Of a DNA stretch of 64,000 nt, positions 8,205-25,168 are shown one piece after another. The notes beneath the pieces are model-generated. The model was given only the letters and a program-made list of their open reading frames with translations, made no database searches and was not told where the DNA came from. The stretch is from Vicinamibacterales bacterium (lineage in GTDB: Bacteria; Acidobacteriota; Vicinamibacteria; Vicinamibacterales; UBA2999), in NCBI GenBank assembly GCA_044347565.1, contig JBIKUN010000001.1, positions 22,302 to 86,301 on the forward strand, read 5' to 3'. Position 1 is the first letter of the stretch; the number at the start of each line of letters is the position of its first letter. The translations under genes were made by a program, and so were the position numbers.

Positions 8205-8280
8205 GGGCCCGTAGCTCAACTGGCAGAGCAGCAGACTCTTAATCTGTTGGTTGAAGGTTCGATTCCTTCCGGGCTCACCA
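8205..8280 (+). tRNA. tRNA-Lys (anticodon CTT); integration target
   Basis: Cloverleaf with acceptor GGGCCCG/CGGGCTC (one G-U pair), anticodon loop CTCTTAA, T arm GAAGG TTCGATT CCTTC, encoded CCA. Confidence 0.9.
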
Positions 8281-8953
8281 TCTTTTCATCAGCCCTCTCG
8301 GACGGCGCCAAGTACTTGAAAAGTGGTGCTGTCACGGCGGTTCGATTGAATCGATTTCCGTCGTACGCGATCCCCTCCGGAAAGAACAGCGCCTGCAGCC
8401 GCTGCTTGTAGTCGAGCGACGCCTGCACCCACAGGTCTGACGCGCGCGGCAGAATGCGTTCTGCGAACGCCAGGATGCCCTGTACGTCGAGTTCGTCGGT
8501 GGCGTCGGCGTGGTAGTCGATCTGGGCCAGCGTCAGCTCCTCGCGCAGCCGGTCGCGCTGCCGCTCGTAGCTCGTGCGATCGATCGACTGCGCGAACAGG
8601 AACGCTTCGTCGAGCCGATCGAGCTTCTGCTGGATCGCCTTCACCCGCCGGTCCTGCTCGACCGTACGGTCCTTCGCCTCGGCCCGCCGCTGCTCCCACA
8701 CGTAGAGAATCCGGTCCTTGACCAGGCGCATGTCGCCGGCAGACGGCTGCAGGAGCGCGAGTTCGTCCGCGAACGCGCCTTCGAGCGCAGCCTTGCTGAC
8801 GTTGACCGCCCGACACTGCCGCTGGCAGTGGCAGTAGGTGTTGCCGCTCACTGAAAACTGACCACCCCGCTTGGCGGCACACTGACCAGACTGCAGACCA
8901 AGGGCTGTCGCCCATCTGGCCGCATTCGGGGCCCTGAGACTCAGGGCAAGTGG
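8216..8953 (-). pseudogene. large serine recombinase remnant (zinc-ribbon and coiled-coil C-terminal part only)
   Basis: The open frame runs from the stop at ~8954. It reads GLQSGQCAAKRGGQFSVSGNTYCHCQRQCRAVNVSKAALEGAF, then IQQKLDRLDEAFLFAQSIDRTSYERQRDRLREELTLAQ and LWVQASLDYKQRLQALFFPEGIAYDG. No resolvase catalytic N-domain is present. The frame runs antisense through the tRNA before stopping. Confidence 0.7.
8236..8280 (+). repeat. att repeat A (3' 45 nt of tRNA-Lys)
   Basis: ctcttaatctgttggttgaaggttcgattccttccgggctcacca is repeated at 21710-21754. Its last 22 nt recur at 25143-25164. Confidence 0.9.
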
Positions 8954-9615
8954 TCAGTGCTCGGCGAGCAGAACCGCCCGGCTCTGGTCAGAACTCATCA
9001 ATCGCGGTGCCGCGCGGTGCGGGTCGGGCACCGACAGCGTGCGTATGTGAGCGCGTTCACGAAGCTGCGTTTGGTGGCGCTCGCGGCCATCGCCACGCCC
9101 AGTGACGCGATCACGGAGAACTACGTTCCGGGCTCCCGGCACGTACGGCGCTACGAGTCGCGGAGATCACGAAAGATCGCATCGCGCATGGAGGCTCCTG
9201 AGCGGCCCGCCATCAGGCCTCGCCGACTCCCCCATCCCGTGTCGACCATGACGCTCCTGGGCCCATCTCCTTCACCTCTCGGACATCAACCACGCCATCG
9301 GGGTCGACGGCGAGATTCTCGCGAGCGGCCAAGGTACTGCGGTAGAACGACTTACAGCGGCCCGTCGAGCGCGGCTTCAGTGATCGATTGCGCGGCAGCC
9401 GCTCATGCAGGGGGAACACTGCTCCCCAAGGTGCGTTCCCCCCTGTGTTCCCCCTGCGGCCCGAGGGCAACGCCCACTAATCACGAGGTTCACGGCGCTC
9501 AGGTCCTCGCACGCTCCATTCGCCACGCGACCGGCGTTCCATGCTCAATTGCGCCCCGGCCACCTCGCTGAGTTCGCACAGCGAAGCGTGCCGCCCACCC
9601 GGCCGTCGCCCTAGG

Positions 9616-9657
9616 GCGGATGTCCTCCTTGACACAGCGGATGTCCTCTTGGCACAG
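9616..9657 (+). repeat. tandem imperfect direct repeat (22 + 21 nt)
   Basis: gcggatgtcctccttgacacag is followed immediately by gcggatgtcctcttggcacag, inside an ORF-poor stretch. Confidence 0.8.
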
Positions 9658-9812
9658 GTCCTTCTTACCTCCTTCTTCGAATGCGCGGATCGTCGAGGCG
9701 GCAGGCGAGCATCCGTCGACGTTACGCGGGCCTGCTTGAGAGAGCGGGAGTCTAGTCCGGTTTGCTCACGCGCCAGCGCTGCTCCTGTGGCCTGCGCCGC
9801 GCCGGTGGTCAA

Positions 9813-10967
9813 TCAGTCGACCGGAAGAAACGCCCATAGCGCCGGGCGGCCGCAGTTGCAGTGCACCGCTCGTCCGAGCAGGCCGCCACCTGCGAGTCCG
9901 AGATACACAGCTGTGCGAGCGGCGTCCCACGCGCCGGGTGCCGGGCGAGCCACCGCGTGGTCACGATTCCCAACGCTTGGGATCGGGTGGAAGATCGTTT
10001 CGACCAGCGCCGGCCGCTCGGGCTCATCGTCCTGGTCGGCGTCGAGCGCGCGGGCAGTCGCCTTCGCAAGCGTCTCGGACACCCCAGCCGCGCGCACGTA
10101 CGCATCCAACTCCGCGACCCCTCGACGGCTGACTGTCGGCAGGATGAGCAGTCCGACGAAGGACCACAGCGTGAACCACAGACTGAGTTCGATCGTGCCG
10201 CCGGCGGAGCCGAGTCGGCCGGGGCCCACGATCGCAGCCGACAATCCGACGCCTGAAAGCGTGAACGCCAGCGCCAGCATTCGACCGCGTCGCCAGGTGC
10301 CGCTCGTGCCGGCCAGCTCGCGGCGGAGCCGCACGCAGGCGAGCTGTTCCGGCGTCAACGACACCTGCCACCGCGCTGGAAGCACGACTCGCCGCGGCCT
10401 CACGACGCCAAGCACGCCGCCGGTAAACCCCTCGTCGTCGCTGGCCACGGTCACATCCGGAAGTTGACCGCCCGAAGACTCGACACCCAGACGGGCCAGC
10501 GACCTGGCCACGGCCATGCGGCCCCACAACAGCAGGAATGACGCGACCGCCCCGACGGCAACGACGCCCCAGACACCTCCGACCCGACCGGCGGCAAGGA
10601 GCGCGACCAGGCTCACGCACAGCACGCAGGCATAGACCACCGCGCCGCGAAGCAGGCGCCCAAGGAATGTCCGGAGCCCCTGGCGGGACCGGCCGTACCA
10701 CACCGGTAACAGGTGCCCGCCGAACAGGTCGAAGGGCAGCTGAACGGCCGCGTGCGATATTGAATAGACGGCCAACGCCAGCGCGGCCGCTCCGACGCCT
10801 GGGCTGACCATGGCATCTACTGCAGCCGGCAGCCCGGCGGCGAGGGCGGCGGTGGTCAGCGTGACCATGGTGCCAACGCCGGAGATGCCAACCCACAGCC
10901 GTGCGCGACCGTAGCCAGGGGCGCGGCCTTCCGACGAAACATACGTTCCTGATGGTGTCGTTGACAT
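9813..10967 (-). CDS. polytopic membrane protein, M48-peptidase-like but lacking HEXXH
   Basis: 384-aa ORF with 4-5 N-terminal TM segments and the layout of an M48/HtpX-type peptidase. RRELA sits where HEXXH is expected (TPEQLACVRLRRELAGTSG), and the C-terminus reads ETIFHPIPSVGNR. It starts 5 nt downstream of the photolyase-like gene. Confidence 0.6.
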   Translation of the reverse strand: MSTTPSGTYVSSEGRAPGYGRARLWVGISGVGTMVTLTTAALAAGLPAAVDAMVSPGVGAAALALAVYSISHAAVQLPFDLFGGHLLPVWYGRSRQGLRTFLGRLLRGAVVYACVLCVSLVALLAAGRVGGVWGVVAVGAVASFLLLWGRMAVARSLARLGVESSGGQLPDVTVASDDEGFTGGVLGVVRPRRVVLPARWQVSLTPEQLACVRLRRELAGTSGTWRRGRMLALAFTLSGVGLSAAIVGPGRLGSAGGTIELSLWFTLWSFVGLLILPTVSRRGVAELDAYVRAAGVSETLAKATARALDADQDDEPERPALVETIFHPIPSVGNRDHAVARPAPGAWDAARTAVYLGLAGGGLLGRAVHCNCGRPALWAFLPVD

Positions 10968-10972
10968 CGGCT

Positions 10973-12235
10973 CTATGGTGATTCGTGAAGCGCCTGGAGG
11001 GGAACTCGTGCAGCCTCCCAGAAGGGGAAGAACCCCTTGGTCGCCAGTGGGAAGAATGCCAGGTCGTGGCCGCGGTCGGCGTAGCGAAGCGTCACGCCGG
11101 TCTTCCTGAGTTCAACGGCGAGCTCGGCCAGCGCTGCGGCGACAAACCCCATGAGCGGCCTGTAGGCCCACACCTCGTCCGCCCCGTTCGCACGGCACCA
11201 GCCGGTGACCTCGGCGGCGCTCCGGGCGTGCGTCACGATCCGTACGCGGGTGTCGGCATCGGCACACGCGCCGGCCACCCACGTGGCGACCAGCTCACCG
11301 GGCGAGTGGTGCCGCCACTTTGCGACGGCATACCGGACCGCAGGCACACGGGTCCAGTCGTCGGGTCGAGGCCCGCAGTCCTCGTCGTGCAGGAGCACCG
11401 CCCGCGGCCGCACGTCACCGGCGGCGGGTCCGAGAGCAGGCCTCACCGCAGAGGTTCGGGCGAGACCATCGTCTGGCAGCGGCCGGGCCGACTCGTCGAG
11501 CTCACCCGGCCTCGGTGACCACCGGCCGTTCGTGAACCTGGCGATGTTGTCGGCGCGGGCCAGGTAGTGCTTGCCCGGCGTCTGAAGGCCCGCCACCCAG
11601 CGCCACGACAGGGTGTTCGACGCCGGGTCGCCGTCCAGCAGATGCTCGAGAAAGAAGCGAGCGCCAAGTTCCCACGGGAGCCTCAGCGTGAAGATCCACA
11701 CGCTCGCGAACCACATCCGCACGTGATTGTGCAGGTATCCCGTGGCGGTCAGTTCCTCGCACCACGCATTGAAATACGGCAAGTCGGTGGTGCCGGATGT
11801 CGCACGGGCGACACGGTCGCTGTCGGTCTGCGGGAGCGTGTCGTCGAGCGACCGAAGCCGCGCGAGGTAGGCGTGCCAGACACCGGGACGGGCCTCGAGC
11901 CACCCTTTCCAGTAGGTCCGCCAGACGACCTCCTGCACGAACTTTTCGACCCGCTCGAACGAGCCGACCGTGCGGGCGAACGCGAGCACTTCCTCCTCCA
12001 GCACCAGCCGCCGCCGGAGATACGGGGACAGCCGACTCGTCGTCAGCCCGTCGGCGTAGTTGCGCGCGGTGCCGTATCTCCCGACAACATCAGCCAGAGC
12101 GCCGAGCCGCGTCAGGCCCGCGGTCCGCGCTGGAACGGTGGTGCCTGCGTCGGCCCGCACAGCTACGGCCCTACTGCCGTGGTCGCGGCGTCGAGGTGTC
12201 CGAGCGCGACCCAGGCGATGAACAGGTTGATGCAC
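10973..12235 (-). CDS. photolyase/cryptochrome-family protein with the FAD-binding domain at the N-terminus (inverted topology)
   Basis: Strings include LSPYLRRRLV, FVQEVVWRTYWKGWLE, WCEELTATGYLHNHVRMWFASVWIFTLRLPWELGARFFLEHLLDGDPASNTLSWRWVAGLQTPGKHYLARADNI, followed by a ~150-aa C-terminal extension. No N-terminal alpha/beta domain is present. The start is uncertain. GTG at 12160, 2 nt after the DoxX stop, is a good alternative. Confidence 0.8.
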   Translation of the reverse strand: MHQPVHRLGRARTPRRRDHGSRAVAVRADAGTTVPARTAGLTRLGALADVVGRYGTARNYADGLTTSRLSPYLRRRLVLEEEVLAFARTVGSFERVEKFVQEVVWRTYWKGWLEARPGVWHAYLARLRSLDDTLPQTDSDRVARATSGTTDLPYFNAWCEELTATGYLHNHVRMWFASVWIFTLRLPWELGARFFLEHLLDGDPASNTLSWRWVAGLQTPGKHYLARADNIARFTNGRWSPRPGELDESARPLPDDGLARTSAVRPALGPAAGDVRPRAVLLHDEDCGPRPDDWTRVPAVRYAVAKWRHHSPGELVATWVAGACADADTRVRIVTHARSAAEVTGWCRANGADEVWAYRPLMGFVAAALAELAVELRKTGVTLRYADRGHDLAFFPLATKGFFPFWEAARVPLQALHESP

Positions 12236-12537: not shown

Positions 12538-12567
12538 GCTTGACCGACCTTCAAGCGGCGACGACGG

Positions 12568-12582
12568 TGACCAGTCTGGTCA
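12568..12582. promoter_or_regulatory. perfect 15-bp palindrome TGACCAGtCTGGTCA between the divergent DoxX genes
   Basis: Read directly. It is centred in the 65-bp gap between starts 12537(-) and 12603(+). Confidence 0.5.
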
Positions 12583-13014: not shown

Positions 13015-13668
13015 TCACCATCCACTCGTGCCGGGGTCTCCCTTGAAGGGACCAACGAGTTCCGGCGTGATCCAGCCGCCGTAGAACCCGCCCGCCTGCC
13101 CCTTGATCCTCACCGCGTCCACGTAGTAATCGCTCCGGGCGGGGTAGAACGAGAGATGGGCGCGGAGGGCTTCGAAGGCCGGCAAAGGCTCGTCGTACGA
13201 CCAACCCACCGCATTCAGCACCATCGGCGCGGCACGCACGGTCCGGTATCTCGCCGTGCCTTTCCACTCGCAGACGGACGACCCCGGCGCGGGCTGCAGG
13301 TATTCGAGCGTGACGTCGGCACGCGGGATGTACACGGTGGGGGGGCTCGCCGTCTCGAGTACCCGAAGGGCGCGGCGCGTGCGCGCCACTTCCACGTCTC
13401 CGACGCGGACGACGATCTGTCTGGGCTCAGCGCCGATGCTTGGAGGCCGCGGGTAGTCCCAGACGGACTCCTGCCCGGGCGCTGGCGCCACGGCAAACGG
13501 CGGACGCACCTGCCCGTAGTAGCGCCAGCCCCCGGGCGTCGGCCCCGGGCGAGTTGGTGACGGGTGGCTGGCCACACTCGTATTGACGGCGAGGCCGCCC
13601 TCGAGGGTCCGGGACGGACGCTCGTTGGCCGGGACGTGGCCCACCCGCCGAGTATGATTGCGGCGCAC
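13015..13668 (-). CDS. DUF427 domain protein
   Basis: ESVWDYPRPP, VARTRRALRVLETASPPTVYIPRADV, SVCEWKGTARY, VGWSYDEPLPAFEALRAHLSFYP. The start is probably internal, because the full ORF overlaps the LOV gene start. Confidence 0.7.
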   Translation of the reverse strand: MRRNHTRRVGHVPANERPSRTLEGGLAVNTSVASHPSPTRPGPTPGGWRYYGQVRPPFAVAPAPGQESVWDYPRPPSIGAEPRQIVVRVGDVEVARTRRALRVLETASPPTVYIPRADVTLEYLQPAPGSSVCEWKGTARYRTVRAAPMVLNAVGWSYDEPLPAFEALRAHLSFYPARSDYYVDAVRIKGQAGGFYGGWITPELVGPFKGDPGTSGW

Positions 13669-14910
13669 CCCGAGGATGCGCGCGTGTCAGCAGAGCCCTC
13701 TCAACAGAACGCGAAGTCGTCGGCCGCCGCTCGCCTTCAGGAACGAGCGCCGGCGGATCAGCTCGCCCTGAAAGATCGTGCGCTCGACGTGGCGGCTGAG
13801 GGCATCACCATTGCAGACGCGCGGTTGCCCGACCGGCCCCTCATCTACGCGAACGAGGGCTTCGAGCACATGACGGGCTACTCCGTGGCGGAGGTGCTGG
13901 GCAGGAACTGCCGGTTCCTGCAGGGCCCCGGTTCCGATCCGGCCGCGGTGGCAGAAATCCGCGCCGCCGTCGCCGGGGAACGCGAGTGCATCGTCGAGAT
14001 CCTGAACTACCGCCGTGACGGCACGACGTTCTGGAATCGGCTCTCGATCACGCCGGTTCGCGACGACCTCGGCGAGGTGACCCATTACATCGGCATCCAG
14101 TCGGACGTCAGCGCCCGTCGCGAGGCCGAGCAGGGACTGCGTCGCGCCAAGGAAGTGCTCGAGCACGATCTCGAGCTAGCGGCGCGGGTTCAGCAGGCCC
14201 TGCTCCCGCCGGTGGAATCGCATCTGGGTGGATTGCGTATCGCGCGCGCGTTCCACCCCTGCACGGGCCTGGCTGGTGACGCGGTGGGTGTCGTGGCCTT
14301 CCCGCGCGGCCAGGTGGGCCTCTACCTGCTGGACGTGAGCGGGCACGGAGTAGGGGCGGCCCTTCTGTCGTTCACCTTGAACCACCTGCTGTCGTCATCG
14401 GTCGAGGGCGAGCTCCTCATCGAGGAGACGGACGACGGACTTGGAGTCGTTCCGCCATCGCGCGTGGCAGAGCGGCTCAACCGGCAGTTCCCGATGGAGC
14501 GAACGCGTCAGTACTTCACGATGGTGTACGGGGTGTTCGACGCATCGCGCGGGCGATTCCACTACGTGATGGCGGGTCACCCCGCGCCGATCCTCCTGCC
14601 CAGGACGGGGCCGCCAGCGCCGCTGCCCGGCAGCGGCCTGCCGATCGGCATGATCGAGCATGCGGCCTACGACGACGAGACCGTCATCCTCCACCCCGGG
14701 GATCGGCTCTACTTCTACACCGACGGGGTCGTCGAAGCGCTGGACGCGTCGGAGCAGGAGTTCGGTCACGAGCGTTTGATGGCGGAGATCGAACGGCAGC
14801 GGAACCGCCCGTTGCGGGCAGGGCTCGATATCGTCGCCGACCTGGTCCGGGACTGGTCGGAAGGCCACCTAAGAGACGACGTGTCGCTGCTTGCGATCGA
14901 GAGGATTTGA
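13654..14910 (+). CDS. LOV (blue-light PAS) domain fused to a PP2C/SpoIIE-type phosphatase
   Basis: LOV signature: IYANEGFEHMTGYSVAEVLGRNCRFLQGPGSD, with the adduct Cys codon at 13909-13911, then NYRRDGTTFWNRLSITPVRDD..HYIGIQSDVS. SpoIIE/PP2C strings follow: LAGDAVGVVAF, LYLLDVSGHGVGAALLS, YFYTDGVVEA. Confidence 0.85.
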   Translation: MIAAHPEDARVSAEPSQQNAKSSAAARLQERAPADQLALKDRALDVAAEGITIADARLPDRPLIYANEGFEHMTGYSVAEVLGRNCRFLQGPGSDPAAVAEIRAAVAGERECIVEILNYRRDGTTFWNRLSITPVRDDLGEVTHYIGIQSDVSARREAEQGLRRAKEVLEHDLELAARVQQALLPPVESHLGGLRIARAFHPCTGLAGDAVGVVAFPRGQVGLYLLDVSGHGVGAALLSFTLNHLLSSSVEGELLIEETDDGLGVVPPSRVAERLNRQFPMERTRQYFTMVYGVFDASRGRFHYVMAGHPAPILLPRTGPPAPLPGSGLPIGMIEHAAYDDETVILHPGDRLYFYTDGVVEALDASEQEFGHERLMAEIERQRNRPLRAGLDIVADLVRDWSEGHLRDDVSLLAIERI

Positions 14911-15124
14911 GAGCGTGACCGGCTGAGCGGGTGCCGCGCTCGGTGACAGACCCGGCGTGATCCAGCCCGGCCTTAGAGACTCACCTGCGATCGTGCGGCC
15001 TCCAGTGCACCTGACATCGTCAGTGCCGCGTCCAACCCAGAGAAAAGTCGATCCCCCGGCGCCCGTTCATCCGCCGATGTTCCTGCGTGGGCTCGCTGCA
15101 GTTCACATTCTGGGAGGTTCGGTT

Positions 15125-15895
15125 ATGGTACGTTCGCGCGTCGCGTCGGCACTGGTCCTCACTCTCATGCCCTCCGCGGCAATGGCTCAGACCAGCAAGA
15201 CGCTGGAGTCGGGTGATTTCGTCGGCATTTCGTTCTGGCTCATCTCCATGGCCCTCGTGGCCGCCACGGCGTTCTTCTTTCTCGAGACCCAGCGGGTCGC
15301 CGGCAAGTGGAAAACGTCGCTCACCGTCTCCGGTCTCGTCACCCTGGTGGCAGCCACTCACTACTTCTACATGCGCGACGTCTGGATCGCGACTGGCAGC
15401 ACGCCCACGGTGTATCGCTACATCGACTGGCTCATCACGGTGCCGCTGCTCATCACGGAGTTCCATCTGATTCTGGCTGCGATCGGCAAAGCCTCCCCTG
15501 GCATCTTCTGGCGTCTCATTGGCAGCACGACGGGCATGCTGGTCGCGGGTTATCTGGGTGAGGCCGGTTACGTCAACGTCTGGCCGGCTTTCATCGTGAG
15601 CATGGCGTTCTGGTTCGTCGTGCTCTACGAAATCTTCGCCGGCGAGGCCTCCAAGGCAGCCACGACCAACGCCCCGGCCTCGGTTCAGTCGGCCTTCAAG
15701 GCGATGCGTCTCATCGTCACGTTCGGCTGGGCGGTGTATCCCATCGGCTACTTCGTCGGTTACCTGACGGGCGGTGACCCTGCCGACAGCATGGGCATGC
15801 TCAACATCGTCTACAACTTCGCCGACGTGGTGAACAAGATTGCCTTCGGCGTCATCATCTGGTCGGTGGCCGTCACCGAGACTGAACGCGGGTAA
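15125..15895 (+). CDS. proteorhodopsin-type light-driven proton pump (DTE motif, Leu105: green-tuned)
   Basis: 256 aa. Signal peptide MVRSRVASALVLTLMPSAAMAQ, then WKTSLTVSGLVTLVAATHYFYMRDVW. RYIDWLITVPLLITEF gives Asp, Thr and Glu at the PR 97/101/108 positions and Leu at 105. The Schiff-base Lys lies in YNFADVVNKIAFGVIIW. GGGAGG lies 7 nt upstream. Confidence 0.92.
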   Translation: MVRSRVASALVLTLMPSAAMAQTSKTLESGDFVGISFWLISMALVAATAFFFLETQRVAGKWKTSLTVSGLVTLVAATHYFYMRDVWIATGSTPTVYRYIDWLITVPLLITEFHLILAAIGKASPGIFWRLIGSTTGMLVAGYLGEAGYVNVWPAFIVSMAFWFVVLYEIFAGEASKAATTNAPASVQSAFKAMRLIVTFGWAVYPIGYFVGYLTGGDPADSMGMLNIVYNFADVVNKIAFGVIIWSVAVTETERG

Positions 15896-15907: not shown

Positions 15908-15943
15908 GGCAGGCACCCGGGCCAGTGGGCCTTGGTGCCTGCC
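15908..15943 (+). other. GC-rich stem-loop between opsin and blh
   Basis: ggcaggcacc (15908-15917) pairs perfectly with ggtgcctgcc (15934-15943). An inner GGCC/GGCC pairing is possible. No U-tract follows. The blh SD GGAGG (15951-15955) follows directly and can pair with CCTCC at 15942-15946, which shares c15942-15943 with the right arm of the main stem. Confidence 0.5.
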
Positions 15944-15960
15944 TCCTCCAGGAGGCTCGC

Positions 15961-16860
15961 ATGACGCGTCCGCTGAGGTGGCAAAGTGCGCTCTTTCTCC
16001 TGGCGAGTCTCGGCGCCTCCGCACTGGCGTTGGGGGGACTTCGCTTCGACCCTCGCACCGAGTTACTCGTATCGACGGTGCTGATCGGTTTGCTGGGCAT
16101 CCCGCACGGCGCTATTGACCCACTGCTGGCCGCGGCAGTCTACGACCTTCGTCGCCCGACCGACTGGTGCTGGTTCGGCGCCAGTTATGTGGCAGTCGCC
16201 CTGGCAGTCGTGCTGGTGTGGCTGTTCGCACCGATGCTGTTTCTCGCCGGATTCCTCCTCGTGTCCATCGTCCATTTCTCCGAGGACCTGGCACCCGGCG
16301 TCTCCTGGGTCTCGCGCGTGGCATATGGGGCGTCGGTCGTGGTCCTGCCGACCGTGCGGTACGCTTCGGAGACCGGCCGACTACTGGGGCTGGTCGCCGG
16401 CGCAGACGCCGCGGCCCCGGTTGTCGCGGTGCTCGCGGCCGTCGCGGGGCCGTTGATGGCGGTGGCGATCTGGCGGGCGCTGGTCGAAGGGGTGCGCAAC
16501 ACGCAGGTGGGACTCGAGTTGGCGGCCGTCGTTCTGCTGTCGGTCTGTGCACCCCCGCTCATCAGCTTCACGGTGTTCTTCTGCGTGATGCACAGCCTGC
16601 GTCATCTGATTCGAGCGGCGCAAACGCAGGCCGACCGGCCGGGCCGGTCGCTGGTGTACGCCGCGGCGTGGCCCATGGCCGGCACCGTCGGCGCAGCGGT
16701 CTTGGGATGGGCACTGCTGGGGAGCCAGTCGCTCGACCAGGCCATGATGCAGCTGGTCTTCGTCGGTCTCGCCGCGCTCACCGTGCCGCACATGGTTCTC
16801 GTCGAAGCCGCGACTCGGGCTGGCTGGCCCCGCATGGCACCCGCGTTCGAGCAGGCCTGA
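15961..16860 (+). CDS. blh: Brp/Blh-family beta-carotene 15,15'-dioxygenase (retinal synthase)
   Basis: Polytopic ~299-aa protein with the family's spaced histidines (GIPHGAIDP, IVHFSED, CVMHSLRHL, LTVPHMV). It lies directly downstream of the opsin. Confidence 0.85.
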   Translation: MTRPLRWQSALFLLASLGASALALGGLRFDPRTELLVSTVLIGLLGIPHGAIDPLLAAAVYDLRRPTDWCWFGASYVAVALAVVLVWLFAPMLFLAGFLLVSIVHFSEDLAPGVSWVSRVAYGASVVVLPTVRYASETGRLLGLVAGADAAAPVVAVLAAVAGPLMAVAIWRALVEGVRNTQVGLELAAVVLLSVCAPPLISFTVFFCVMHSLRHLIRAAQTQADRPGRSLVYAAAWPMAGTVGAAVLGWALLGSQSLDQAMMQLVFVGLAALTVPHMVLVEAATRAGWPRMAPAFEQA

Positions 16861-17230: not shown

Positions 17231-17622
17231 GCGGACTCGCTGAAGCTCAGTGCGGGGTCGCAGGGCCCGTTCTGCGCCGAGCCGGTGCTCGTTCCGTCTG
17301 GCGATCATCAGATCCTGGCTTTCCGCGTCGTTCGCCACGCCAGCGATGTCACGCGCGTGCGCCGCGTCGCTCACGAGTTTGCCGTGAGCGGCGATGAGGG
17401 CCTGAACGTAGTGCTCTTGTGCCAACGGCGACTCGAATTCCGTCATCTGCGCCACGTGAGCGAGCGTGCCAAGGCCCCCGATGGCGTACGCGTCGAGCGC
17501 CCGAATCCGTTCCACTGCGCCAGGTGAGTCAGCGAGAGCAGGGCGTAGGAATCAGCGAGTACTTGGTTCAGGCCGCGCGTGAGTGCAGCCGTGTCGGTTG
17601 AAGCAGCGTCAATGGCCATCAT
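17198..17622 (-). pseudogene. Dps/ferritin-like protein remnant (internal deletion plus frameshift)
   Basis: The N-terminal piece [37 protein letters not shown] (from 17622) breaks frame near 17515. It resumes as ERIRALDAYAIGGLGTLAHVAQMTEF ... DAESQDLMIARRNEH. The expected segment between the HW motif and the ERIRALGG helix is missing. Confidence 0.55.
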
Positions 17623-17916
17623 GTCCTCGCTCTCGGGATGACCGTCGGGCGTGGCCGCCTACATCGCGTCGGCATAAGCCTGCGGGCAGCCGAAAGCGCC
17701 TCGGTTCCCACTTCTCCACCTCTTGGGACGCACGCTACGACCGCGAGGATGCCGGCACGCAACCGATACCCATCCGCGCCTCGCAGCCTGTCCAGCAACG
17801 GTTCGGTCGTGGACCTGAGCCGGCACACCGGGCGCCATACGCTCGGATGGCGGACGTTGCTGCCATCACACATCCGCTTTCCAGCTGTCGTTCACATACG
17901 ACAAAGAGAGATAGAC

Positions 17917-18354
17917 ATGGCCATGACTGCGACGACCGTGGCCGCGCCAACGGCCGATATCGTCGACACCGCCGTTGCTGCCGGCACGTTCAGCACCCTG
18001 GCGACGGCTCTGACAGCCGCGGGGTTGGTCGACACGTTGAATGGCGCTGGGCCCTTCACGGTGTTCGCGCCGACAAACAACGCGTTTGCGAAGATCCCGG
18101 CGGACGATTTGAAGGCACTGCTGGCGGACAACGCTGCGCTGACGAAGGTGCTGACCTACCACGTTGTGGCAGGCAAGGTCATGGCGGCCGACGTCGTGAC
18201 GATGAAGGAGGCGCAGTCGGTTCAGGGCAGCATGATCGCCATCGATACGACTGCGGGCGTCAAGGTCAACAACGCGACGGTCACGGCGACCGATATCGTG
18301 GCAACCAATGGCGTCATCCACGTGATCGATACCGTGATCATGCCGAAGGCCTGA
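17917..18354 (+). CDS. fasciclin (FAS1) domain protein, no obvious signal peptide
   Basis: [57 protein letters not shown] ... [10 protein letters not shown] ... [13 protein letters not shown]. Confidence 0.85.
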
Positions 18355-18668
18355 CTCGTGGACTCCGGAACGGCGCGGGCGACGAACCCGCGCCGTCCCC
18401 ACACCTCGGCTTGGGAGCCAGATGCGCGCGACGGGACTCGGTGTGGCGTGGTCGTTCGTATCACCGTCAACGATCGCCTCGTCGATATGCTTCCGGCGTT
18501 GATCCTGATGTTCGCCGACGGCTACATCTTGGTGGCGTCGCAGCCGGCGACCTGAACGGGCGTCAGATCACGCGGCCGCCAGTGGGACCAATCCGGCGAC
18601 CGAGGGCGTCTTACGGGACACGAAGTCCGACGCGCCGGTCCGCGCGACTGTATCGAAAGATCCTCACC

Positions 18669-18836
18669 GTGTTTCATCGCAGCGATGCCGTCTTTCTTGT
18701 GGCCGCCTTCCTGTCATTCGTGTTCTCGGTGTACCTCTGGTTCAGCGGGCAGCGCGACGAAGGCATGTTCGTGGGCATCTGGGTGCCGTCGATCCTGTCG
18801 TTCGCGACGCTGACGGCCCAGGCGAGGAAGCGCTGA
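18669..18836 (+). CDS. small two-TM membrane protein (55 aa, GTG start)
   Basis: VFHRSDAVFLVAAFLSFVFSVYLWFSGQRDEGMFVGIWVPSILSFATLTAQARKR. Its stop overlaps the next ATG (cTGATG). Confidence 0.4.
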   Translation: MFHRSDAVFLVAAFLSFVFSVYLWFSGQRDEGMFVGIWVPSILSFATLTAQARKR

Positions 18837-18970
18837 TGTCCGCCATGACGATTCTCGCGGTCGGGCTCTTCGTGACCGCTCTGTGCGGGTTCGGGTTGTG
18901 GTTCACGATCGTCGAGATCCGCCGGCTCTCGAGCCGCGCCCCGAGCGATGAGCCGGGACGACCTGCGTGA
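18836..18970 (+). CDS. small single-TM membrane protein (44 aa; below the ORF-track cutoff)
   Basis: [44 protein letters not shown]. It is coupled to the upstream small ORF and overlaps the SDR start. Confidence 0.4.
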   Translation: MSAMTILAVGLFVTALCGFGLWFTIVEIRRLSSRAPSDEPGRPA

Positions 18971-19718
18971 TTCGACCTTCGTCGTGGTTGCGGCGGCAAG
19001 CAGCGTGGCCGTGCGCGTGGCGCAGATGCTGGCTGCGCGAGGCGCGCGCCTGGTGCTGGCAGGCCGCGATGCCGCCGTGCTCGCTCCGCTCGCCGCAGAC
19101 GTCGGCGGCCGCGTGGTGACAGCCGACGCCACCCGCTTCTCAGACCTTGAGCGCTGCGTCGGCGACGCCGCGGCCACGACCGGCCGCCTGGACGGCATCG
19201 TCAACTGCGCCGGCTCGATTCTTCTGAAGTCCGCGCACCTCACCTCTGAACAGGAGTTGCAGGACGTGCTCTCGGCCAATCTCGTCTCGGCGTTTGCCAC
19301 CGTGCGCGCCGCGTCGAACGTGATGCGGCCGTCTGGCGGCTCGATCGTGCTGATGAGCTCGGCGGCCGCCGCCATCGGTCTGCCCAACCACGAGGCGATC
19401 GCCGCCGCGAAGGCCGGCGTGTCGGGGCTGATGCGTTCGGCGGCGGCGACCTACGCGCCCTATGGCATTCGCGTGAACGCTGTGGCTCCCGGTCTCGTCG
19501 ACACTCCGATGAGTCGCCCGATCACGTCGAACGATCTCGCGCGCAAGGCATCGGTGGCCATGCATCCGCTTGGCCGGCTCGGCACGCCTGACGACATCGC
19601 CGAGGCCGTATGCTGGCTGCTCGGCCCGCAAAGCTCCTGGGTCACGGGCCAGGTCATCGGCGTTGATGGCGGGCTGGCCACATTGAAGACCCGCAGCAAG
19701 ACAGAGAGCCGCTCCTGA
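18948..19718 (+). CDS. SDR-fold protein with degenerate cofactor and catalytic motifs
   Basis: The SDR core is present ([29 protein letters not shown]). The TGxxxGxG position reads VAAASSVA. The YxxxK position reads IAAAK (Tyr replaced by Ile). Confidence 0.7.
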
Positions 19719-19854
19719 CGACGTGAACACGCCTCCGCGTCGGGATCCGTCACTCGGACCGCGACGTCCTACCTACGTAGGCACGATGGTGCGAACGGAA
19801 CGCACCCTCGCACATCGTGACGATTCACAGCAGTGTTTCAGAGGGTATATCGAC

Positions 19855-20346
19855 ATGCAGATACTCAAGACTCTCGTGTGCGGCGCCGTCGTGGCGACCA
19901 TGGCTCTGTCGGCGGGAACGACCGTTCGTGCACAGGGCAAGGACATTGTTGACACGGCCGTGGCGGCCGGACAGTTCAAGACGCTCGCGGCGGCCCTGAC
20001 CGCGGCCGGCCTCGTGCCGACGCTGAAGGGTGCCGGGCCGTTCACGGTGTTCGCGCCGACCGACGAGGCGTTCGCGAAGCTGCCGAAAGGTACGGTCGAA
20101 GACCTGTTGAAGCCCGAGAACAAGGCCAAGCTCACCGCGATCCTCACGTATCACGTGGTCGCTGGCAAGGTGATGGCAGCCGACGTCGTGAAACTGACCT
20201 CTGCCAAGACCGTGCAGGGCGGATCGGCCAAGGTCTCGACGATGGGCGGCGGCGTGATGATCGATGCATCGCACGTCACGAAGACGGATATCGTGACGTC
20301 GAACGGCGTGATTCACGTGATCGACACGGTGATGATGCCGAAGTAG
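19855..20346 (+). CDS. secreted fasciclin (FAS1) domain protein
   Basis: [28 protein letters not shown] (signal peptide), then [44 protein letters not shown] ... [14 protein letters not shown]. Confidence 0.88.
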
Positions 20347-20472
20347 CGGCATCGACGGAGATGCATCGAGGGGTCCTACCGGAGCGTCCGGCGGCCCCTC
20401 GATCTGTGTACGCGTCCCGTGCACTGCCCGTACGACCGGGAGCACGGCAGAGATCCGCCGCGGTTACCTCGC

Positions 20473-21195
20473 TCATCCCGTGCGAGGCCCGTGGATGACA
20501 CCAGCCGCCCGGGCTTGCCACGCCGCCGCGTGCTCGCGGTGGTCGGCCATCACCGCCTGTGGCAGCTTCTTCGGCGCCGCAAGCGGCACCGCCATTCGGA
20601 CGTTGGCCGCGAAGCGCGCGCGATGACGCTCCAGGAAGTTCCAGTAGAGATGGTTTAGGGGACACGCCGCCGCTCCGCTCGTCGTGGCGGGATCGAACTG
20701 GCAGCCCGCGCATAGACTCGGCCCCAGCCGCTGGATGTACTTTCCCGACGACACGTGGGGCTTGCTGCCCACGATGCCGCCGTCAGCCCACGTTGCCATG
20801 CCGGCCACATTGGGTGCGACCACCCACTCGTAGGCATCCACGTACATTTCCCAGAACCAACGATAGAGCGCTTGCGGGTCGACACCGAGCAGCGTCGCGA
20901 TGTTCGACAGTGCCATCAGCCGCTGGATGTGGTGGCTGTAGCCGCGTGCGACCAGCTGTGCGACGGCGGTGTCGAGACAGTGGATGCCCGAGAGCTCGCC
21001 CCAGTAACACGAAGGCAGCGGCAGGTCTGCGGCGAGCGCGTTGGACACTCCGAACGTCATCACGGCGATGCGCACGGTCGTTGCCGCCTGAATTTTCGTG
21101 GACGTCCAGGACCTGCTCTGCGGCGGCGACGGCACGACGTGCCGGCTCTTCACGCCGGACGGCGCCCTCCTGTCGTACGATGGCGCGCATCTCAC
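20473..21195 (-). pseudogene. C-terminal half of an FeS-cluster (6-4) photolyase / CryB-PhrB-type protein; N-terminal half missing
   Basis: Family-like sequence starts only around LPLPSCYWGE. It continues GYSHHIQRLMALSNIATLLGVDP, WFWEMYVDAYEWVVAPNVAGMATWADGG, SGKYIQRLGPSLCAGCQFDPATTSGAAACPLNHLYWNFLERH. The C-x2-C-x12-C spacing is as in the FeS-BCP class. The first ~45 residues of the ORF look unrelated. Confidence 0.65.
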
Positions 21196-21659
21196 GCCGG
21201 ATCGCGCCCGCTACGCTGGCACGCGCCTGCCGGCGGCCCCGGCGCTGGCCGCCTGGCGCTAAGGCCCGGACGGCGCCGCTCCCGGAGATCACACATGCCT
21301 CACGTCATCGAACGCGCCACCACGGGCCGCGCCAGGTGTCACGACGTGACGACCGCTGCAGACCTCGTGGGCGTGCGGACGATACGGTCGTCGCCGGCCT
21401 TGCGGTCAGTGAAGCGCGAGTGATCCTGATTCGCTTTCCGGCCGGGGCGCGGCGCACGGTCGGGGTAGTCGTGGCGCAGGCGGTGAGCAGGTTCGGCGTG
21501 CGATTGGTCGGCAGCTTCGCCGTCGTCGAGCCCGGGCGGGTGCGGCTCGGCCGACCGCCTCGCGCCTGACGACAAGGCCCCAGGCTGGCATCGCCGTGTG
21601 GCACTGTGTGGCACTGCTTCCGTGCGTAGCGTCATCTGGGGCCACCACGAGTCGTCGAT

Positions 21660-23099
21660 TCATTCAGTAAATCGCGACCTGCGACGTCGTGCGATGGCTC
21701 TTCCGACGTCTCTTGATCTGTTGGTTGAAGGTTCGATTCCTTCCGGGCTCACCACTCCAACTGGAGGCGCATTAACGGTTTCCGCGTCGAGCGCGTCATC
21801 GACGTCGTACGCCCCAACCGCGCCGTGTGGCACTGGTGTGGCACTGGAGCAAGAATCCCCCTCGCGCACCATGGGCGGCGTGCGTTCGCTTGCCGCCTGC
21901 GAGTCCTCCAGCAGGCGCAACGCGCGCTCCAAGCGCATCGCCGTGGAACGCAGGTAGCGCGACGTCGTCGTGAGGTTGGTGTGACCGAGGAAGTCACGCA
22001 CGTCGTGCAACTCGGCGCGCGACTCCAGCAGCCGGCATGCGAACTCGCGGCGCAGGTCGTGGAAGTGCAGGTCAACAGCGCCGGCCTTCTCGCACGCGGT
22101 GCGCCACGTGGTCTTGATCGACGCGATCGGCCCGCCCACCTCGTCGCCGAACACATAGGCGTCCGGCGGTAGCACCTCACCCTCTGGGTCAGTCCGCAAC
22201 ATCTCGAGCACGGCGGCCAGGCGCTGCCCCACCGGAACGACCCGCAGCGTGCCCGTCTTGGTCTTCCCCGCGCGCAGCACCAGTGCCCGCGCACGGCCGC
22301 CGGCGTCGCACTGCACGTCGCGCCACTGCAACGACAGCAGTTCACCAAGTCGGCACCCCGTCGACAGTGCCGCGATCAGCAGGCCGCGCAGGTGCGGCGT
22401 GGCCACCGTCATGAGCGCGTCTTCTTCGCCTGGCAGCAGCCGGCGGGTGCGCACGGTTTCGGCGGCGCCGTCGAGCCGCACGACGTTCACGCCGTGCCGC
22501 TTGAACGGTGTGTCGTCCCGGTAGCCCTGCGCAATCGCCCAGTTGAACAGATGGCGCACGCGGGCCTTGAATCGGTTGAGGCCGACATGGCCGCCCTTGG
22601 TGCTGCGTCCGGCAAGTGTGGCGGACGTCAGCAGGTCCGCAGGCACGTCGCGCTGCTCGGCCCGCACCCTCGCAACCTGCCGTGCCGCGGCGAGCGCCTC
22701 GTTCACGGCGTCGAGGCGCGCGTGGATCTCGAACTGGCGCACGGCATGCGGCTTCCGTGTGTCACGCCGCGCGTAGTCGCGCAGGTAACGTTCCGCCACG
22801 TTCGCCAACGTGGGCTCAACGACTGTCTGCGTGCAGACCTCGGGGAGCGCGAACGCACCGGCACGCACCTCCGTCCGAATGCGATCGGCGAGCGCCTGCG
22901 CTTCACTGCGCGACATCACGTCGCCGGCCGGCCGATCCGCGAAGCGATGGAGACTCACGCGGTGGCGCACTTTGCTACCCGCGACGTCCTTGCCATGACA
23001 GAAGGCGAAGTGCCATGGGTGCGTGCACTTCGTCCACAGTCGCGGCGTACAGCCGCACCGCTTCGAGAGCCCATCCTGACGTCGCATGGTTGAAGTCAA
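21660..23099 (-). CDS. int: tyrosine-type site-specific integrase
   Basis: 479-aa ORF with LSTGCRLGELLSLQWRDV, catalytic region HFHDLRREFACRLLE, and LGHTNLTTTSRYL. The last ~30 codons read antisense through att repeat B. Confidence 0.9.
   Translation of the reverse strand: MTSTMRRQDGLSKRCGCTPRLWTKCTHPWHFAFCHGKDVAGSKVRHRVSLHRFADRPAGDVMSRSEAQALADRIRTEVRAGAFALPEVCTQTVVEPTLANVAERYLRDYARRDTRKPHAVRQFEIHARLDAVNEALAAARQVARVRAEQRDVPADLLTSATLAGRSTKGGHVGLNRFKARVRHLFNWAIAQGYRDDTPFKRHGVNVVRLDGAAETVRTRRLLPGEEDALMTVATPHLRGLLIAALSTGCRLGELLSLQWRDVQCDAGGRARALVLRAGKTKTGTLRVVPVGQRLAAVLEMLRTDPEGEVLPPDAYVFGDEVGGPIASIKTTWRTACEKAGAVDLHFHDLRREFACRLLESRAELHDVRDFLGHTNLTTTSRYLRSTAMRLERALRLLEDSQAASERTPPMVREGDSCSSATPVPHGAVGAYDVDDALDAETVNAPPVGVVSPEGIEPSTNRSRDVGRAIARRRRSRFTE
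21710..21754 (+). repeat. att repeat B (copy of the tRNA-Lys 3' 45 nt, one mismatch)
   Basis: ctcttgatctgttggttgaaggttcgattccttccgggctcacca, aligned by eye to 8236-8280. Confidence 0.9.
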
Positions 23100-23128
23100 A
23101 AGTGCGTCGGTGAGCTTGCCCCGGTTTC

Positions 23129-23440
23129 GTGGACATCTTCCGAAAGGTGGATACGATGTCCCGCATGGAAAGCAGCAAGCCCGCCCGACGCCTCCGTCGG
23201 CGGTTCACGGACGAGTTCAAGGCCGGCGCGATTCGGCTCGTCGTGGATGAAGGCCAGACCATCGGCGCCGTCGCCCGCGACCTCGATCTGACGGCCTCGT
23301 CGCTCGCCGAGTGAGTCAAGCGGGCGCAGGCGGACCGGACCAAGGGCCACACGGGCTTGACGACGGTGGAGCGCGAGCAACTGGCACAGCTCCGCCGCGA
23401 CAATCGCGAGTTGCGCCTGGAGCGCGACATCCCACAACAA
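23129..23440 (+). pseudogene. IS3-family transposase orfA remnant (in-frame TGA, truncated)
   Basis: RRFTDEFKAGAIRLVVDEGQTIGAVARDLDLTASSLAE, then TGA(23312-23314), then VKRAQADRTKGHTGLTTVEREQLAQLRRDNRELRLERDI. No orfB or inverted repeats were seen. Confidence 0.7.
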
Positions 23441-23587
23441 GATGAACTTGCTCGCGGCGGTGCGGATTCTCGATGTTCCTGGGGCTCACGGGCACTGACG
23501 CCCGAAGGGCCGCGAGCCTGGAAACCGAGCCGCCTTGACGCACGCCAGGCCAGGTGTTACTTTCGTGACACCTTCGGAGATGAGCGC

Positions 23588-23887
23588 ATGGCCACGACCA
23601 CGATCAAGCTTGCCAACGATCTCAAGGAACGAATCGCGCCATTAGCGCGCGCTGCCGGCCAGACACCGCATGCGTGGATGGTGACCGCGCTCGAGCGTCA
23701 GGCCGAGCTGGCGGGCATGCGCGAACAGTTCATTGCGGAGGCGGAAGCGTCCGCGTCAGAAGTCGACGCGGGTGGCGCGTTATATGCGGCCGAGGACGTT
23801 CACGCCTATATCCTTGCGCGCGCCGCACGCAGGGGCGGTGGCAGGAAGCCAGCCCGGCCGAAGGCGATCAAGCGCCGCCGCGCGTGA
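23588..23887 (+). CDS. ParD/RelB-type antitoxin
   Basis: MATTTIKLANDLKERIAPLARAAGQTPHAWMVTALERQAE (RHH-like). There is a 4-nt GTGA overlap with the toxin gene. Confidence 0.75.
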   Translation: MATTTIKLANDLKERIAPLARAAGQTPHAWMVTALERQAELAGMREQFIAEAEASASEVDAGGALYAAEDVHAYILARAARRGGGRKPARPKAIKRRRA

Positions 23888-24165
23888 AGATCCTGTACTC
23901 GGCGCGTGCGCTCGCTGGCCTCGACCGCGTGTTCGATTTCCTCGCCGCCCATGATCCGAACGCAGCCGTGCGCGCTGCAGAGCGGATCGGCGAGGCCGTG
24001 GCGCTGCTTCAGAACCACCCGTTCGTCGGCCGGCCGATCCGCGGCGAGGTGCGCGAGTTGGTGATTTCGCACGGCCGCGACGGTTACGTGGCGCTCTATC
24101 GCGTTCGCGCCGGCACGGTTGTGGTCCTCGCGGTGCGGCACCAGCGCGAGGCCGGGTATCAATAG
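23884..24165 (+). CDS. ParE/RelE-family toxin
   Basis: VKILYSARALAGLDRVFDFLAAHDPNAAVRAAERIGEAVALLQNHPFVGRPIRGEVRELVISHGRDGYVALYRV; 93 aa. Confidence 0.75.
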   Translation: MKILYSARALAGLDRVFDFLAAHDPNAAVRAAERIGEAVALLQNHPFVGRPIRGEVRELVISHGRDGYVALYRVRAGTVVVLAVRHQREAGYQ

Positions 24166-24384
24166 TTGCCGACCGGGTGGTGCAGAGAAGCGCGGCCGCA
24201 AAGCTGAGCCGCGGCGAGGGTTGCCGGTCGCGGTGCGCGAGGACGCGGCGCGCTGGTGCGGTCACCACGTTCGGCGGAGGGCTTCGCGGGTGACGTCGTT
24301 CTCGAGCAGCGAGTCCGCCAGCCGCTTCTTCAAAGGCGTCTTCTGCTCCGCTTTCCGACGCTCGCCAGCTCGTATGACGCAGTC

Positions 24385-24876
24385 ATGCACGTGGAAGAAG
24401 TGCTGACCATCCGCCTGCCAAGGGGCACGCGGCGCCGTCTGGAGCGGCGCGCCAAGGCGCAGAAGCTCTCGGTGAGCCAGCTGGTGCGTCGCGCGCTCGA
24501 ACAGGACGAGCTGCTCATGAGCCTCGCCTCGGCTCGCGCCGAACTAGTCGTGGTGCGTGCTCTTGGCTCCGGCGCCGTGGTCACGTCCCCGGCGCTACTC
24601 GATGAGATCGATGGCACGTTACGCGCCAGGTTCACGATCGGACCTGCGGCAATGGCGTTTCTCGAGCAGCTCCGCTTGCGGGTGCATCTCGTCGTGCCGG
24701 CGCCACTCGCGCCGCCGGCGTCGCGTGCCCCTGACGATGACGTGGTGTTGGCAACGGCCGTCGCCGCCAATGCGACGGCCATCGTCACCGGAAACCGTGA
24801 CCTGCTCGTTCTGCAACGCTGTCGCGGTGTCGAGATCGTCACGCCACGCGACTTCCTGAGCCGCCTGCCGACGTGA
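24385..24876 (+). CDS. RHH (CopG-like) antitoxin fused to an N-terminally truncated PIN domain
   Basis: N-terminus MHVEEVLTIRLPRGTRRRLERRAKAQKLSVSQLVRRALEQ. C-terminus SRAPDDDVVLATAVAANATAIVTGNRDLLVLQRCRGVEIVTPRDFL (PIN C-terminal signature). The expected N-terminal vvlDTNv acidic motif of PIN is absent. Confidence 0.6.
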   Translation: MHVEEVLTIRLPRGTRRRLERRAKAQKLSVSQLVRRALEQDELLMSLASARAELVVVRALGSGAVVTSPALLDEIDGTLRARFTIGPAAMAFLEQLRLRVHLVVPAPLAPPASRAPDDDVVLATAVAANATAIVTGNRDLLVLQRCRGVEIVTPRDFLSRLPT

Positions 24877-25142
24877 CCTGCTGAGGGTCAGCTGCCCCAG
24901 TGTGCCGCATGAAGGAGACGCAACCAGGCACACCGTCCCACGCCTTCCGGATGTCGTGGCGCTGATGGAAGACCTGCCGTCACACGGTCGAGCCCACCAG
25001 CGGCAAGCCCGCGGTGCACAGCCGAGCCAGAGACAGACATGAGCTGAGTGTAGGCCACTCGCCCGTCTCCAGAATGTCTCAAGGAACCCGGTCGAATCAC
25101 GTCGACGCCGTCAGCCGGTTGGCTGAACGACGAACTCAAGCG

Positions 25143-25168
25143 TCGATTCCTTCCGGGCTCACCACTCC
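25143..25168 (+). repeat. att repeat C (26 nt, outermost copy)
   Basis: tcgattccttccgggctcaccactcc is identical to 21733-21758. The first 22 nt match the tRNA 3' end. Confidence 0.85.

Follow-up and report, generated by a model that had tools for sequence, protein, structure and literature searches.

The window analysed here, the whole stretch of 64,000 nucleotides (nt) from a Vicinamibacterales bacterium, contains an intact tRNA-Lys(CTT) gene (8205–8280, plus strand; ARAGORN; Rfam RF00005, 70.9 bits) that is followed downstream by partial copies of its own 3′ end. We consider it probable that the DNA from this gene to the last of these copies is a stack of at least three decayed integrative elements, which we designate T1, T2, and L, the first two belonging to one tyrosine-integrase family and the last to a family of large serine recombinases. 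A previous examination of the letters without database searches (the sequence-only reading) had proposed that three direct copies of the tRNA end, designated A, B, and C, delimit two tandem elements, A–B and B–C. The number of two was not sustained, as the serine-recombinase fragment lying at the tRNA belongs to a family that does not make 45-nt repeats, and hence at least three elements have to be assumed.

Copies of the tRNA-Lys end and the junction at copy B

Copy A is the last 45 nt of the gene itself (tRNA positions 32–76; 8236–8280, plus strand). Copy B repeats these positions at 21710–21754 with a single mismatch, G replacing A at tRNA position 37 (A37G), and continues with CTCC to 21758 (plus strand), and copy C comprises tRNA positions 55–76 (25143–25164) followed likewise by CTCC (25143–25168, plus strand). 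The 26 nt at 21733–21758 and at 25143–25168 are identical, including the CTCC after CCA, whereas copy A continues with TCTT. All of this agrees with what the sequence-only reading had described, and the self-comparison that it had suggested for the repeat coordinates confirmed the repeats: a search with the 22-nt core, allowing up to three mismatches, returned the three copies, an unrelated tRNA-Arg, and nothing else in the window, and the same search in 100 shuffles returned 0 matches. The copies lie in direct orientation on one strand, with an intact tRNA gene and displaced 3′ fragments, which is the arrangement by which the Islander database recognizes such fragments, and their interpretation as att-type relics of site-specific integration at tRNA-Lys was borne out. 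Among the loci collected for comparison (numbered with the prefix L and three digits), the end formed by the tRNA and the recombinase fragment was reproduced on the independent metagenome contigs L001 and L002, and the stretch from the S8 protease gene through copy C, the integrase gene, and copy B to the rhodopsin gene was reproduced on the metagenome contigs L168–L171.

A tyrosine integrase of 418 amino acids (aa), apparently intact, is encoded at 21660–22916 (minus strand; PF00589, 1.4e-23, 84 bits; phrog_1, 1.5e-46) by an open reading frame (ORF) that crosses copy B, and the identical 418-aa protein (P0241) was found on four contigs. Its translation shows the catalytic residues in CRLGE, a Lys in the TKTG region, HDLRRE, and GHTNLTTTSRY, which is consistent with the R-K-H-R-H/W-Y signature of PF00589. 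Copy B is flanked by two arms. The one on its left, a putative P arm that would be the right end of the A–B element (21593–21709, minus strand), carries AGTGCCACAC in tandem at 21596–21605 and 21606–21615, and the one on its right, a putative P′ arm that starts with CTCCAACTG and lies within the 3′ end of the integrase gene (21759–21850, minus strand), carries it at 21825–21834 and 21836–21845. These are the only four exact occurrences of the 10-mer in the 64 kb, all around copy B and all in one orientation, with the pairs located about 100 nt to the left and about 70 nt to the right of the copy. Such a layout corresponds to that of a lambda-type attP, in which the arm motifs would be the binding sites.

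The assignment of these arms is supported by relatives of the integrase. Homologs with 83% (L172) and 76% (L173 and L174) protein identity, and one with 83% nucleotide identity by tblastn (L006), have the right-hand AGTGCCACAC pair beside a CTCCAA(C/G)T junction next to the integrase gene, and the arm motifs are conserved in these four loci and in L111. The P-arm flank together with the copy is 76% identical to L111 over 166 nt, where the P arm adjoins a copy of tRNA positions 30–76, and 21593–21709 is about 85% identical, as estimated from the alignment, to the P arm of the attR of L173. The latter locus represents a complete element of about 5.06 kb, in which tRNA-Lys is followed by CTCC and the P′ arm, the integrase gene, cargo, the P arm, and finally a copy of tRNA positions 32–76. 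A block boundary at position 32 was also found in L111, L098, and L086, as well as in L173. Furthermore, the attR copies differ from the tRNA in the anticodon loop at positions 36–38 (G37 in copy B and L098, C36 in L173, and G38 in L111), which places the crossover 3′ of position 38. The tyrosine-integrase family thus uses the anticodon-side block that constitutes the 45-nt repeat (positions 32–76), and the block shared by copies A and B falls into the anticodon-loop sublocation class of Williams (2002), in which, as cited in PMC4383910, the identity begins in the anticodon loop and continues as far as the tRNA 3′ end. Because the arm motifs flank copy B on both sides and L173 makes the 45-nt repeat, copy B is read as the right end of the A–B element joined to the left end of the B–C element, that is, as the attR of a left-hand family member fused to the attL of the right-hand, integrase-bearing element. 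Judging from the AGTGCCACAC pairs on both sides and the architecture of L173, the sequence-only reading was correct in regarding copy B as the junction of two tandem elements.

The order of these two elements could also be assessed. Two other species (L006 and L008) retain homologous remnants of the integrase gene at this locus, which have 83–86% nucleotide identity in their longest pieces, with a shorter piece in L006 at 79%, and the flanking aminotransferase gene is 83–84% identical in the same comparison. Since the remnants are about as similar as the flank, they fit an old, vertically inherited relic, which argues for the B–C element being the older one. Together with the P arm on the left of copy B, this supports the earlier proposal that the integrase-bearing B–C element arrived first and A–B later.

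The serine recombinase fragment and its family

Directly against the tRNA, and reading into its reverse complement, lies an ORF for the C-terminal 211 codons of a large serine recombinase, comprising the zinc-ribbon and coiled-coil part (8216–8851, minus strand; phrog_95 “integrase”, E=6e-5, aligned to positions 408–545 of the 651 of the profile). The fragment begins in the zinc-ribbon region and has no N-terminal catalytic resolvase domain; relatives have Resolvase ORFs directly upstream (PF00239 ORFs in L003, L085, and L086) or, in L004, one intact frame of 531 aa. Homology to L003 and to the intact L004 copy ends at window position 8841. At E≤0.001, 1561 homologs of the fragment were obtained, many of those listed with PF13408 (Zn_ribbon_recom) and some with PF07508 (Recombinase); among the matches listed, the best were 67–95% identical, and none of the 120 listed exceeded 370 aa. 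They span soil and freshwater metagenomes, and the few named sources are Acidobacteria or Dehalococcoidia. In three relatives the recombinase is split into two overlapping ORFs (L003 9282–10876, L085 9262–10978, and L086 455–1935). Programmed frameshifting was considered and rejected, as the positions of the break differ and L004 has a single intact frame; the split ORFs are likely to reflect decay or indel errors of long reads.

The att sites of the family were surveyed in a metagenome scan that gave 80 loci, and a scan of IMG/VR added one relative only, L087, with an intact attP. Recombinase copies at least 76% identical adjoin tRNA-Lys(CTT), and more distant sublineages adjoin tRNA-Glu(TTC) or tRNA-Ala(GGC). 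In at least 17 complete elements of 4.8–10.6 kb, the far end has, on the same strand, TGGTGAGCC (or its Glu or Ala equivalent), 13 or 14 nt of any sequence, and AGTTGGAACC, so that it has 9–13 nt in common with the tRNA, plus a GGTTCCAAC arm. An uninterrupted attP, in which the 3′ end of the recombinase gene, the core, and the arm follow one another, was found in L087 (an IMG/VR contig), L162, L166, and L084. The family therefore shows the features of large serine integrases, namely short att sites, a minimal core, and an attP beside the recombinase gene, whereas the copy in the window does not. When the window was searched for a far-end site of this type with the GGTTCCAAC arm, none was found in the 64 kb.

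Since the far ends share just 9–13 nt with the tRNA, the serine-recombinase family cannot have made the 45-nt repeat, and the fragment against the tRNA is, as judged from these architectures, the attL junction of a third, mostly deleted element. The claim that A–B is one inserted element was accordingly retained in part: its right end is a genuine P arm, but its own integrase is gone and its tRNA end comes from a different family. The only recombination gene content of A–B is the 211-codon fragment, and no tyrosine integrase was detected in this interval with Pfam or by tblastn. An integrase for each island, as Islander expects of a tandem, is therefore present in B–C and not in A–B. As to the recombinases as a whole, we put it at about an even chance that they form a family of large serine integrases that is both widespread and highly conserved, dedicated to tRNA 3′ ends and retargeted to Lys(CTT), Glu(TTC), and Ala(GGC), with an ORF that ends inside the tRNA and with attP and attB sharing 9–13 nt plus the AGTTGGAACC arm.

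Toxin–antitoxin cassettes (PIN, HicAB, and MazE-PIN) were also observed stacked at tRNA-Lys in L006 (5790–7710), L172 (11446–12386), and L088 (5615–7105). In L006 and L172 each cassette closes with a far-end site of the serine-recombinase type, those of L006 being separated by repeats of a unit about 79 nt long with a copy of tRNA positions 56–76, and in L088 the tRNA and a partial copy of it enclose a PIN cassette.

Proposed history of the locus and alternative explanations

We infer the following order of events and deletions from what the comparisons establish: the repeat copies, the arm motifs, the pair of recombinase families, and the att architectures of these families in relatives. T1, a tyrosine-integrase element, would have entered the tRNA first, and its surviving tRNA-side end would be the CTCC, the P′ arm, and the integrase gene on the right of copy B; it would also have brought the IS3 scrap and two toxin–antitoxin loci, its far end having been lost or reduced to copy C. 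T2, of the same integrase family, would later have entered the regenerated tRNA and pushed T1 outward, so that its right end (the P arm and positions 32–76) became fused to the left end of T1 at copy B. The large-serine-recombinase element L would have come last, at the extreme 3′ end of the tRNA, and a deletion would then have taken most of L together with the integrase end of T2, leaving the last 211 recombinase codons. As the integrase end of T2 is expected where the fragment now sits, by analogy with L173 and L174, a single deletion removing both is the simplest assumption. The light-related gene set in the 13.4 kb of A–B would most likely be cargo of T2 and less likely of L. Copy A has no P′ arm, for which reason the att sites of A–B are probably nonfunctional; since copy C also lacks a P arm and only a truncated serine recombinase is left, the array as a whole is probably immobile now.

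The breakpoints are visible on both sides of the cargo. The segment 8842–9812, which begins at the deletion or rearrangement breakpoint, has no convincing ORF and no Pfam matches, and it is similar to none of the fetched loci except the same-strain contigs L001 and L002. A hidden integrase remnant was looked for within it by tblastn and none was found. At the other end, a second breakpoint lies between 21195 and about 21590, as a truncated photolyase gene shows.

The B–C interval contains an IS3-type OrfA fragment (23129–23314, plus strand; Pfam HTH_Tnp_1), a ParE-type toxin–antitoxin locus (23357–24165, plus strand; Pfam ParE_toxin), and an RHH-PIN toxin–antitoxin locus (24256–24876, plus strand; Pfam RHH_1 and PIN_3), gene calls on L168 having been used here too. 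The content given earlier for this element (the integrase, an IS3 remnant, and two toxin–antitoxin loci) was thus all recovered, but the element is truncated at copy C. The attR expected for its integrase, as in L173, is a P arm with tRNA positions 32–76, and no AGTGCCACAC arm motifs, and hence no P arm, were found in the surroundings of copy C; as the copy is also too short for the tyrosine integrase, B–C is truncated on the right. The proposal that copy C is the original tRNA end was left unproven by these features, since the copy covers positions 55–76 only and the integrase-side arm invariably begins with the 4 nt CTCC in the window, L006, L172, L173, and L174, so that sharing it with copy B does not prove a native tRNA end. 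A truncated attR is one candidate for copy C, an older relic of the T-loop type another. In L097, L010, L006, L085, and L110, relics of the latter type occur alongside a conserved sequence unit, about 79 nt long, that is absent from the window.

This unit, followed by a T-loop-type tRNA copy of 21–22 nt (L097 3035–3140, L010 7564–7666, L085 10812–10913, and L110 2563–2670), sits in several species just downstream of tRNA-Lys or of the far end of an element, and the combination looks like an old relic of some integrase. The unit with the copy of positions 55/56–76 was considered as the far arm of the serine recombinase and rejected, because the genuine far-end site of L097 is located immediately inside the unit, which makes the unit there older downstream DNA.

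Beyond copy C lies the gene of an S8 (subtilase) protease (25174–27513, minus strand; Pfam Peptidase_S8), whose stop codon at 25174–25176 is 5 nt from the end of the copy, as the sequence-only reading had noted. At its 3′ end (25177–25340) there are about 8–9 tandem 18-bp repeats, which give the protein a tail of repeated hexapeptides; L104 has a comparable tract of repeats in an S8-like gene (13737–13969), the two proteins being 38% identical. The database includes genomes with 97% identity in the flank, yet no homolog of the protease in it exceeded 50%. An empty site identified through the protease was sought and given up, as the best homolog is at 50%, no ortholog was found in close relatives, and the S8-like genes near the tRNA in L104 and L107 are 38–41% identical. 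The protease gene, which had been called chromosomal, cannot be shown to be core chromosome.

Several points weigh against this history. Three integrations and no fewer than two deletions have to be assumed for it, and the arm motifs on which the assignment of copy B depends stand as putative binding sites. The right end of T1, a P arm with the 45-nt block, is missing; the history does not account for the boundary of copy C at position 55, which fits the T-loop-type relics of relatives (L097, L010, and L006). Neither an empty site nor an excised form of these elements was found. Finally, given the breakpoint at 21195–21590, the light-related cargo could have belonged to the serine-recombinase element and not to T2.

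This last point leads to the alternative that survives best, which we nevertheless regard as unlikely. Here, the light genes are the cargo of the serine-recombinase element, and only a P arm of about 120–500 nt is left of T2, a deletion having started at the photolyase gene and taken the right end of the recombinase element and most of T2. The photolyase fragment (20473–21195) lacks its N-terminal part, which puts a breakpoint right beside the P arm, and serine-recombinase elements elsewhere carry 5–10 kb of variable cargo. However, this version also requires two deletions and is not simpler, and none of about 40 sampled serine-recombinase elements has any of these cargo genes.

It is improbable, in our estimation, that the whole A–C segment of about 17 kb arrived in one step through the serine recombinase, with copy B as an unused internal attP of the tyrosine integrase. 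One integration and one deletion would suffice for it, the serine-recombinase-type right flank of copy A would be accounted for, and copy B with its flanks has indeed the full P–core–P′ layout beside an integrase gene. Against it, copy C does not have the far-end signature of the serine recombinase (the GGTTCCAAC arm at fixed spacing), nor does any other place in the window, and L006 has a P′–integrase module without a P arm, indicating that the arms do occur separately as attL and attR.

The two-element arrangement, in which A–B has the serine recombinase as its own enzyme, the 45-nt copies A and B are its attL and attR, and B–C is bounded by the 26-nt repeat, is largely refuted and must be considered very improbable. 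It would save one integration; the recombinase fragment adjoins copy A as intact copies adjoin the tRNA elsewhere; and in L111 a recombinase, the block of positions 30–76, and a homolog of the left flank of copy B are contiguous in an attP-like manner. L111 was, however, sampled for its serine recombinase, so that this adjacency is expected in a tandem of separate elements as well. The complete elements of the family, at least 17 in number, have the 9–13-nt core and the GGTTCCAAC arm at the far end and never a 45-nt block, L173 proves that the flank on the left of copy B belongs to the tyrosine-integrase family as its P arm, and the repeat of the tyrosine integrase itself is 45 nt and not 26 nt. 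An artefact (a chimeric contig or an assembly or binning error) or a chance similarity is hardly credible despite the source being a metagenome assembly, because the chance expectation is zero and six contigs from six other samples show both junction regions, so that the layout is not an assembly artefact.

Cargo, genomic setting, and significance

The stack of T1, T2, and L that we favor contains a light-related gene set in its A–B interval. A LOV (blue-light) domain fused to a PP2C/SpoIIE phosphatase is encoded at 13564–14910 (plus strand; Pfam PAS_9 and SpoIIE; NCBIfam LOV/YtvA, 1e-44) and carries the canonical GRNCRFLQG motif. It lies directly upstream of a pair consisting of a predicted proteorhodopsin-type proton pump (14957–15895, plus strand; Bac_rhodopsin, 9e-48; proteorhodopsins in the PDB, E=5e-80) and Blh, a β-carotene 15,15′-dioxygenase or retinal synthase (15925–16860, plus strand; BCD, 1e-39; TIGR03753, 160.9 bits against a cutoff of 95). 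The rhodopsin translation contains the D/T/E motif residues and the Schiff-base lysine (VVNK), which, with the adjacent blh gene, predicts a proteorhodopsin pump supplied by retinal synthesis, and it has Leu at what we take to be the green/blue tuning site by its position in proteorhodopsin alignments. A tRNA-Gly(GCC) called by ARAGORN at 13879–13952 is a false positive, as Rfam is blank there and the call lies inside the LOV–PP2C ORF.

On the left of these genes, the segment 9813–13668, with a third-position GC of 0.78–0.86, has genes for a membrane protein (with a weak Peptidase_M48_N match), a photolyase/cryptochrome-like protein, two DoxX-like proteins, and a DUF427 protein, as assigned with Pfam, NCBIfam, and a sequence search of the PDB. 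In the photolyase/cryptochrome-like ORF (10973–12235, minus strand), residues 33–216 match photolyase residues 205–395, the first part of the FAD-binding domain only; the N-terminal alpha/beta domain is absent and about 190 C-terminal residues have no assignment, which may point to rearrangement of the gene or to an unusual architecture. On the right, 16997–21195 has, according to Pfam and gene calls on L168, an ORF without assignment, fasciclin-like genes, an SDR gene, a fasciclin gene, and the truncated photolyase gene already mentioned (minus strand), a C-terminal fragment that is read as FeS-type and from which about the N-terminal two thirds are gone. A 144-nt direct repeat with 74% identity (17956–18099 and 19942–20085) apparently stems from a pair of paralogs with fasciclin domains in this region.

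Synteny was searched for by tblastn with ORFs filtered on third-position GC, which replaced a tblastx search swamped by low-complexity matches of high GC. The genes on the left of the tRNA (aminotransferase, SNase, antiporter, PGI, and others) are syntenic with those of relatives, and the synteny ends exactly at the tRNA, with none found on its right (8281–64000) within the 7–10 kb that the relatives offer. The flanking aminotransferase has 97% identical orthologs in metagenome-assembled genomes (MAGs) of uncultured Acidobacteria and an 87% identical one in one Vicinamibacterales MAG, and TonB-dependent receptors are encoded nearby. The composition of the A–C interval is foreign, with a GC of 0.62–0.69 compared with 0.70–0.73 in the left flank and a third-position GC of 0.77–0.86 compared with 0.91–0.93. 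Other tandem arrays at tRNA-Lys were found in L086 and L088, and tRNA-Lys(CTT) of this Vicinamibacterales-like acidobacterium is an integration hotspot.

The tRNA gene itself is 100% identical to those of L003, L005, and L088. When the window (8253–8269) was compared with the tRNA genes of L003–L010, the T-stem was found to vary among close relatives with fully compensatory pairs (GAAGG/CCTTC, GTAGG/CCTAC, and CTCGG/CCGAG), and it differs between L004 and both the window and L003 despite about 97% identity in the neighboring protein. Such variation is consistent with the replacement of the 3′ half of the tRNA by copies carried on integrating elements.

Tandem islands at tRNA genes are already well documented, and in this respect the locus is a textbook hotspot of modest interest: 125 tandems of at least two are recorded in Islander (Hudson et al, 2015; PMC4383910), and TIGER also reports islands at tDNA (Mageeney et al, 2020; PMC7192596). 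As in the arrays of both, an intact tRNA is followed by displaced direct 3′ fragments, newer elements pushing older ones outward. In terms of the Islander classes (PMC4383910), the 45-nt block resembles an anticodon-centred attP and the 22–26-nt copy a T-stem-region one, an assignment that is our own. The present array differs in that an integrase is kept in one interval only, the inner interval is fused with a serine-recombinase remnant, and the length of the outermost fragment does not match the block of the adjoining integrase.

The closest precedent for a serine recombinase lying against a t(m)RNA gene is that of the Dehalococcoides ssrA islands (McMurdie et al, 2011; PMC3146451), in which the large serine recombinase DsiB, on the reverse strand, adjoins the 3′ end of the gene, and which are likewise tandem, with variable cargo and some lacking integration modules; an accretion or cis-mobilizable scenario has been discussed for them. 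In contrast to those islands, the targets here are tRNA genes (sublineages at Lys, Glu, and Ala) and not ssrA, the core is 9–13 nt compared with 20 bp, the ORF of the recombinase terminates within the tRNA, a second recombinase resembling DsiA was not seen, and the window has a fragment only. Prochlorococcus tycheposons (Hackl et al, bioRxiv 10.1101/2020.12.28.424599) also carry cargo at tRNA genes with partial tRNA flanks, and their successive integrations displace older elements and leave degraded integrases and stray partial tRNAs; they have mostly tyrosine recombinases and, in a minority, large serine recombinases. The present array differs from them in host phylum, and neither a replication module nor a sign of current mobility was seen.

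The assignment of the three copies illustrates that the length of a repeat alone does not name its maker, and that arm motifs and relatives are needed for this purpose. In marine bacteria, modules of proteorhodopsin and blh are laterally transferred as a compact pair in foreign, strain-variable regions. Here, by comparison, the pair is linked to LOV–PP2C and photolyase-like genes, bounded by att sites, and located at a tRNA gene of an acidobacterium. An att-bounded rhodopsin photosystem with light sensors represents a concrete lateral route of light harvesting into a mostly soil phylum.

Two surveys do not regard serine integrases as known or proven to target tRNA genes (PMC4383910; PMC7192596); in the latter, 14 of 297 candidates are counted and experimental proof is asked for. 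With such targeting not established there, the serine integrase family is the least ordinary finding of this study, although it goes beyond the observation that was followed up. It provides clean sets of attP, attL, and attR for three tRNAs, which could interest those who investigate or engineer large serine integrases, and, if the enzymes are active, it would constitute a natural series of retargeted integrases whose att sites are readable from metagenomes.

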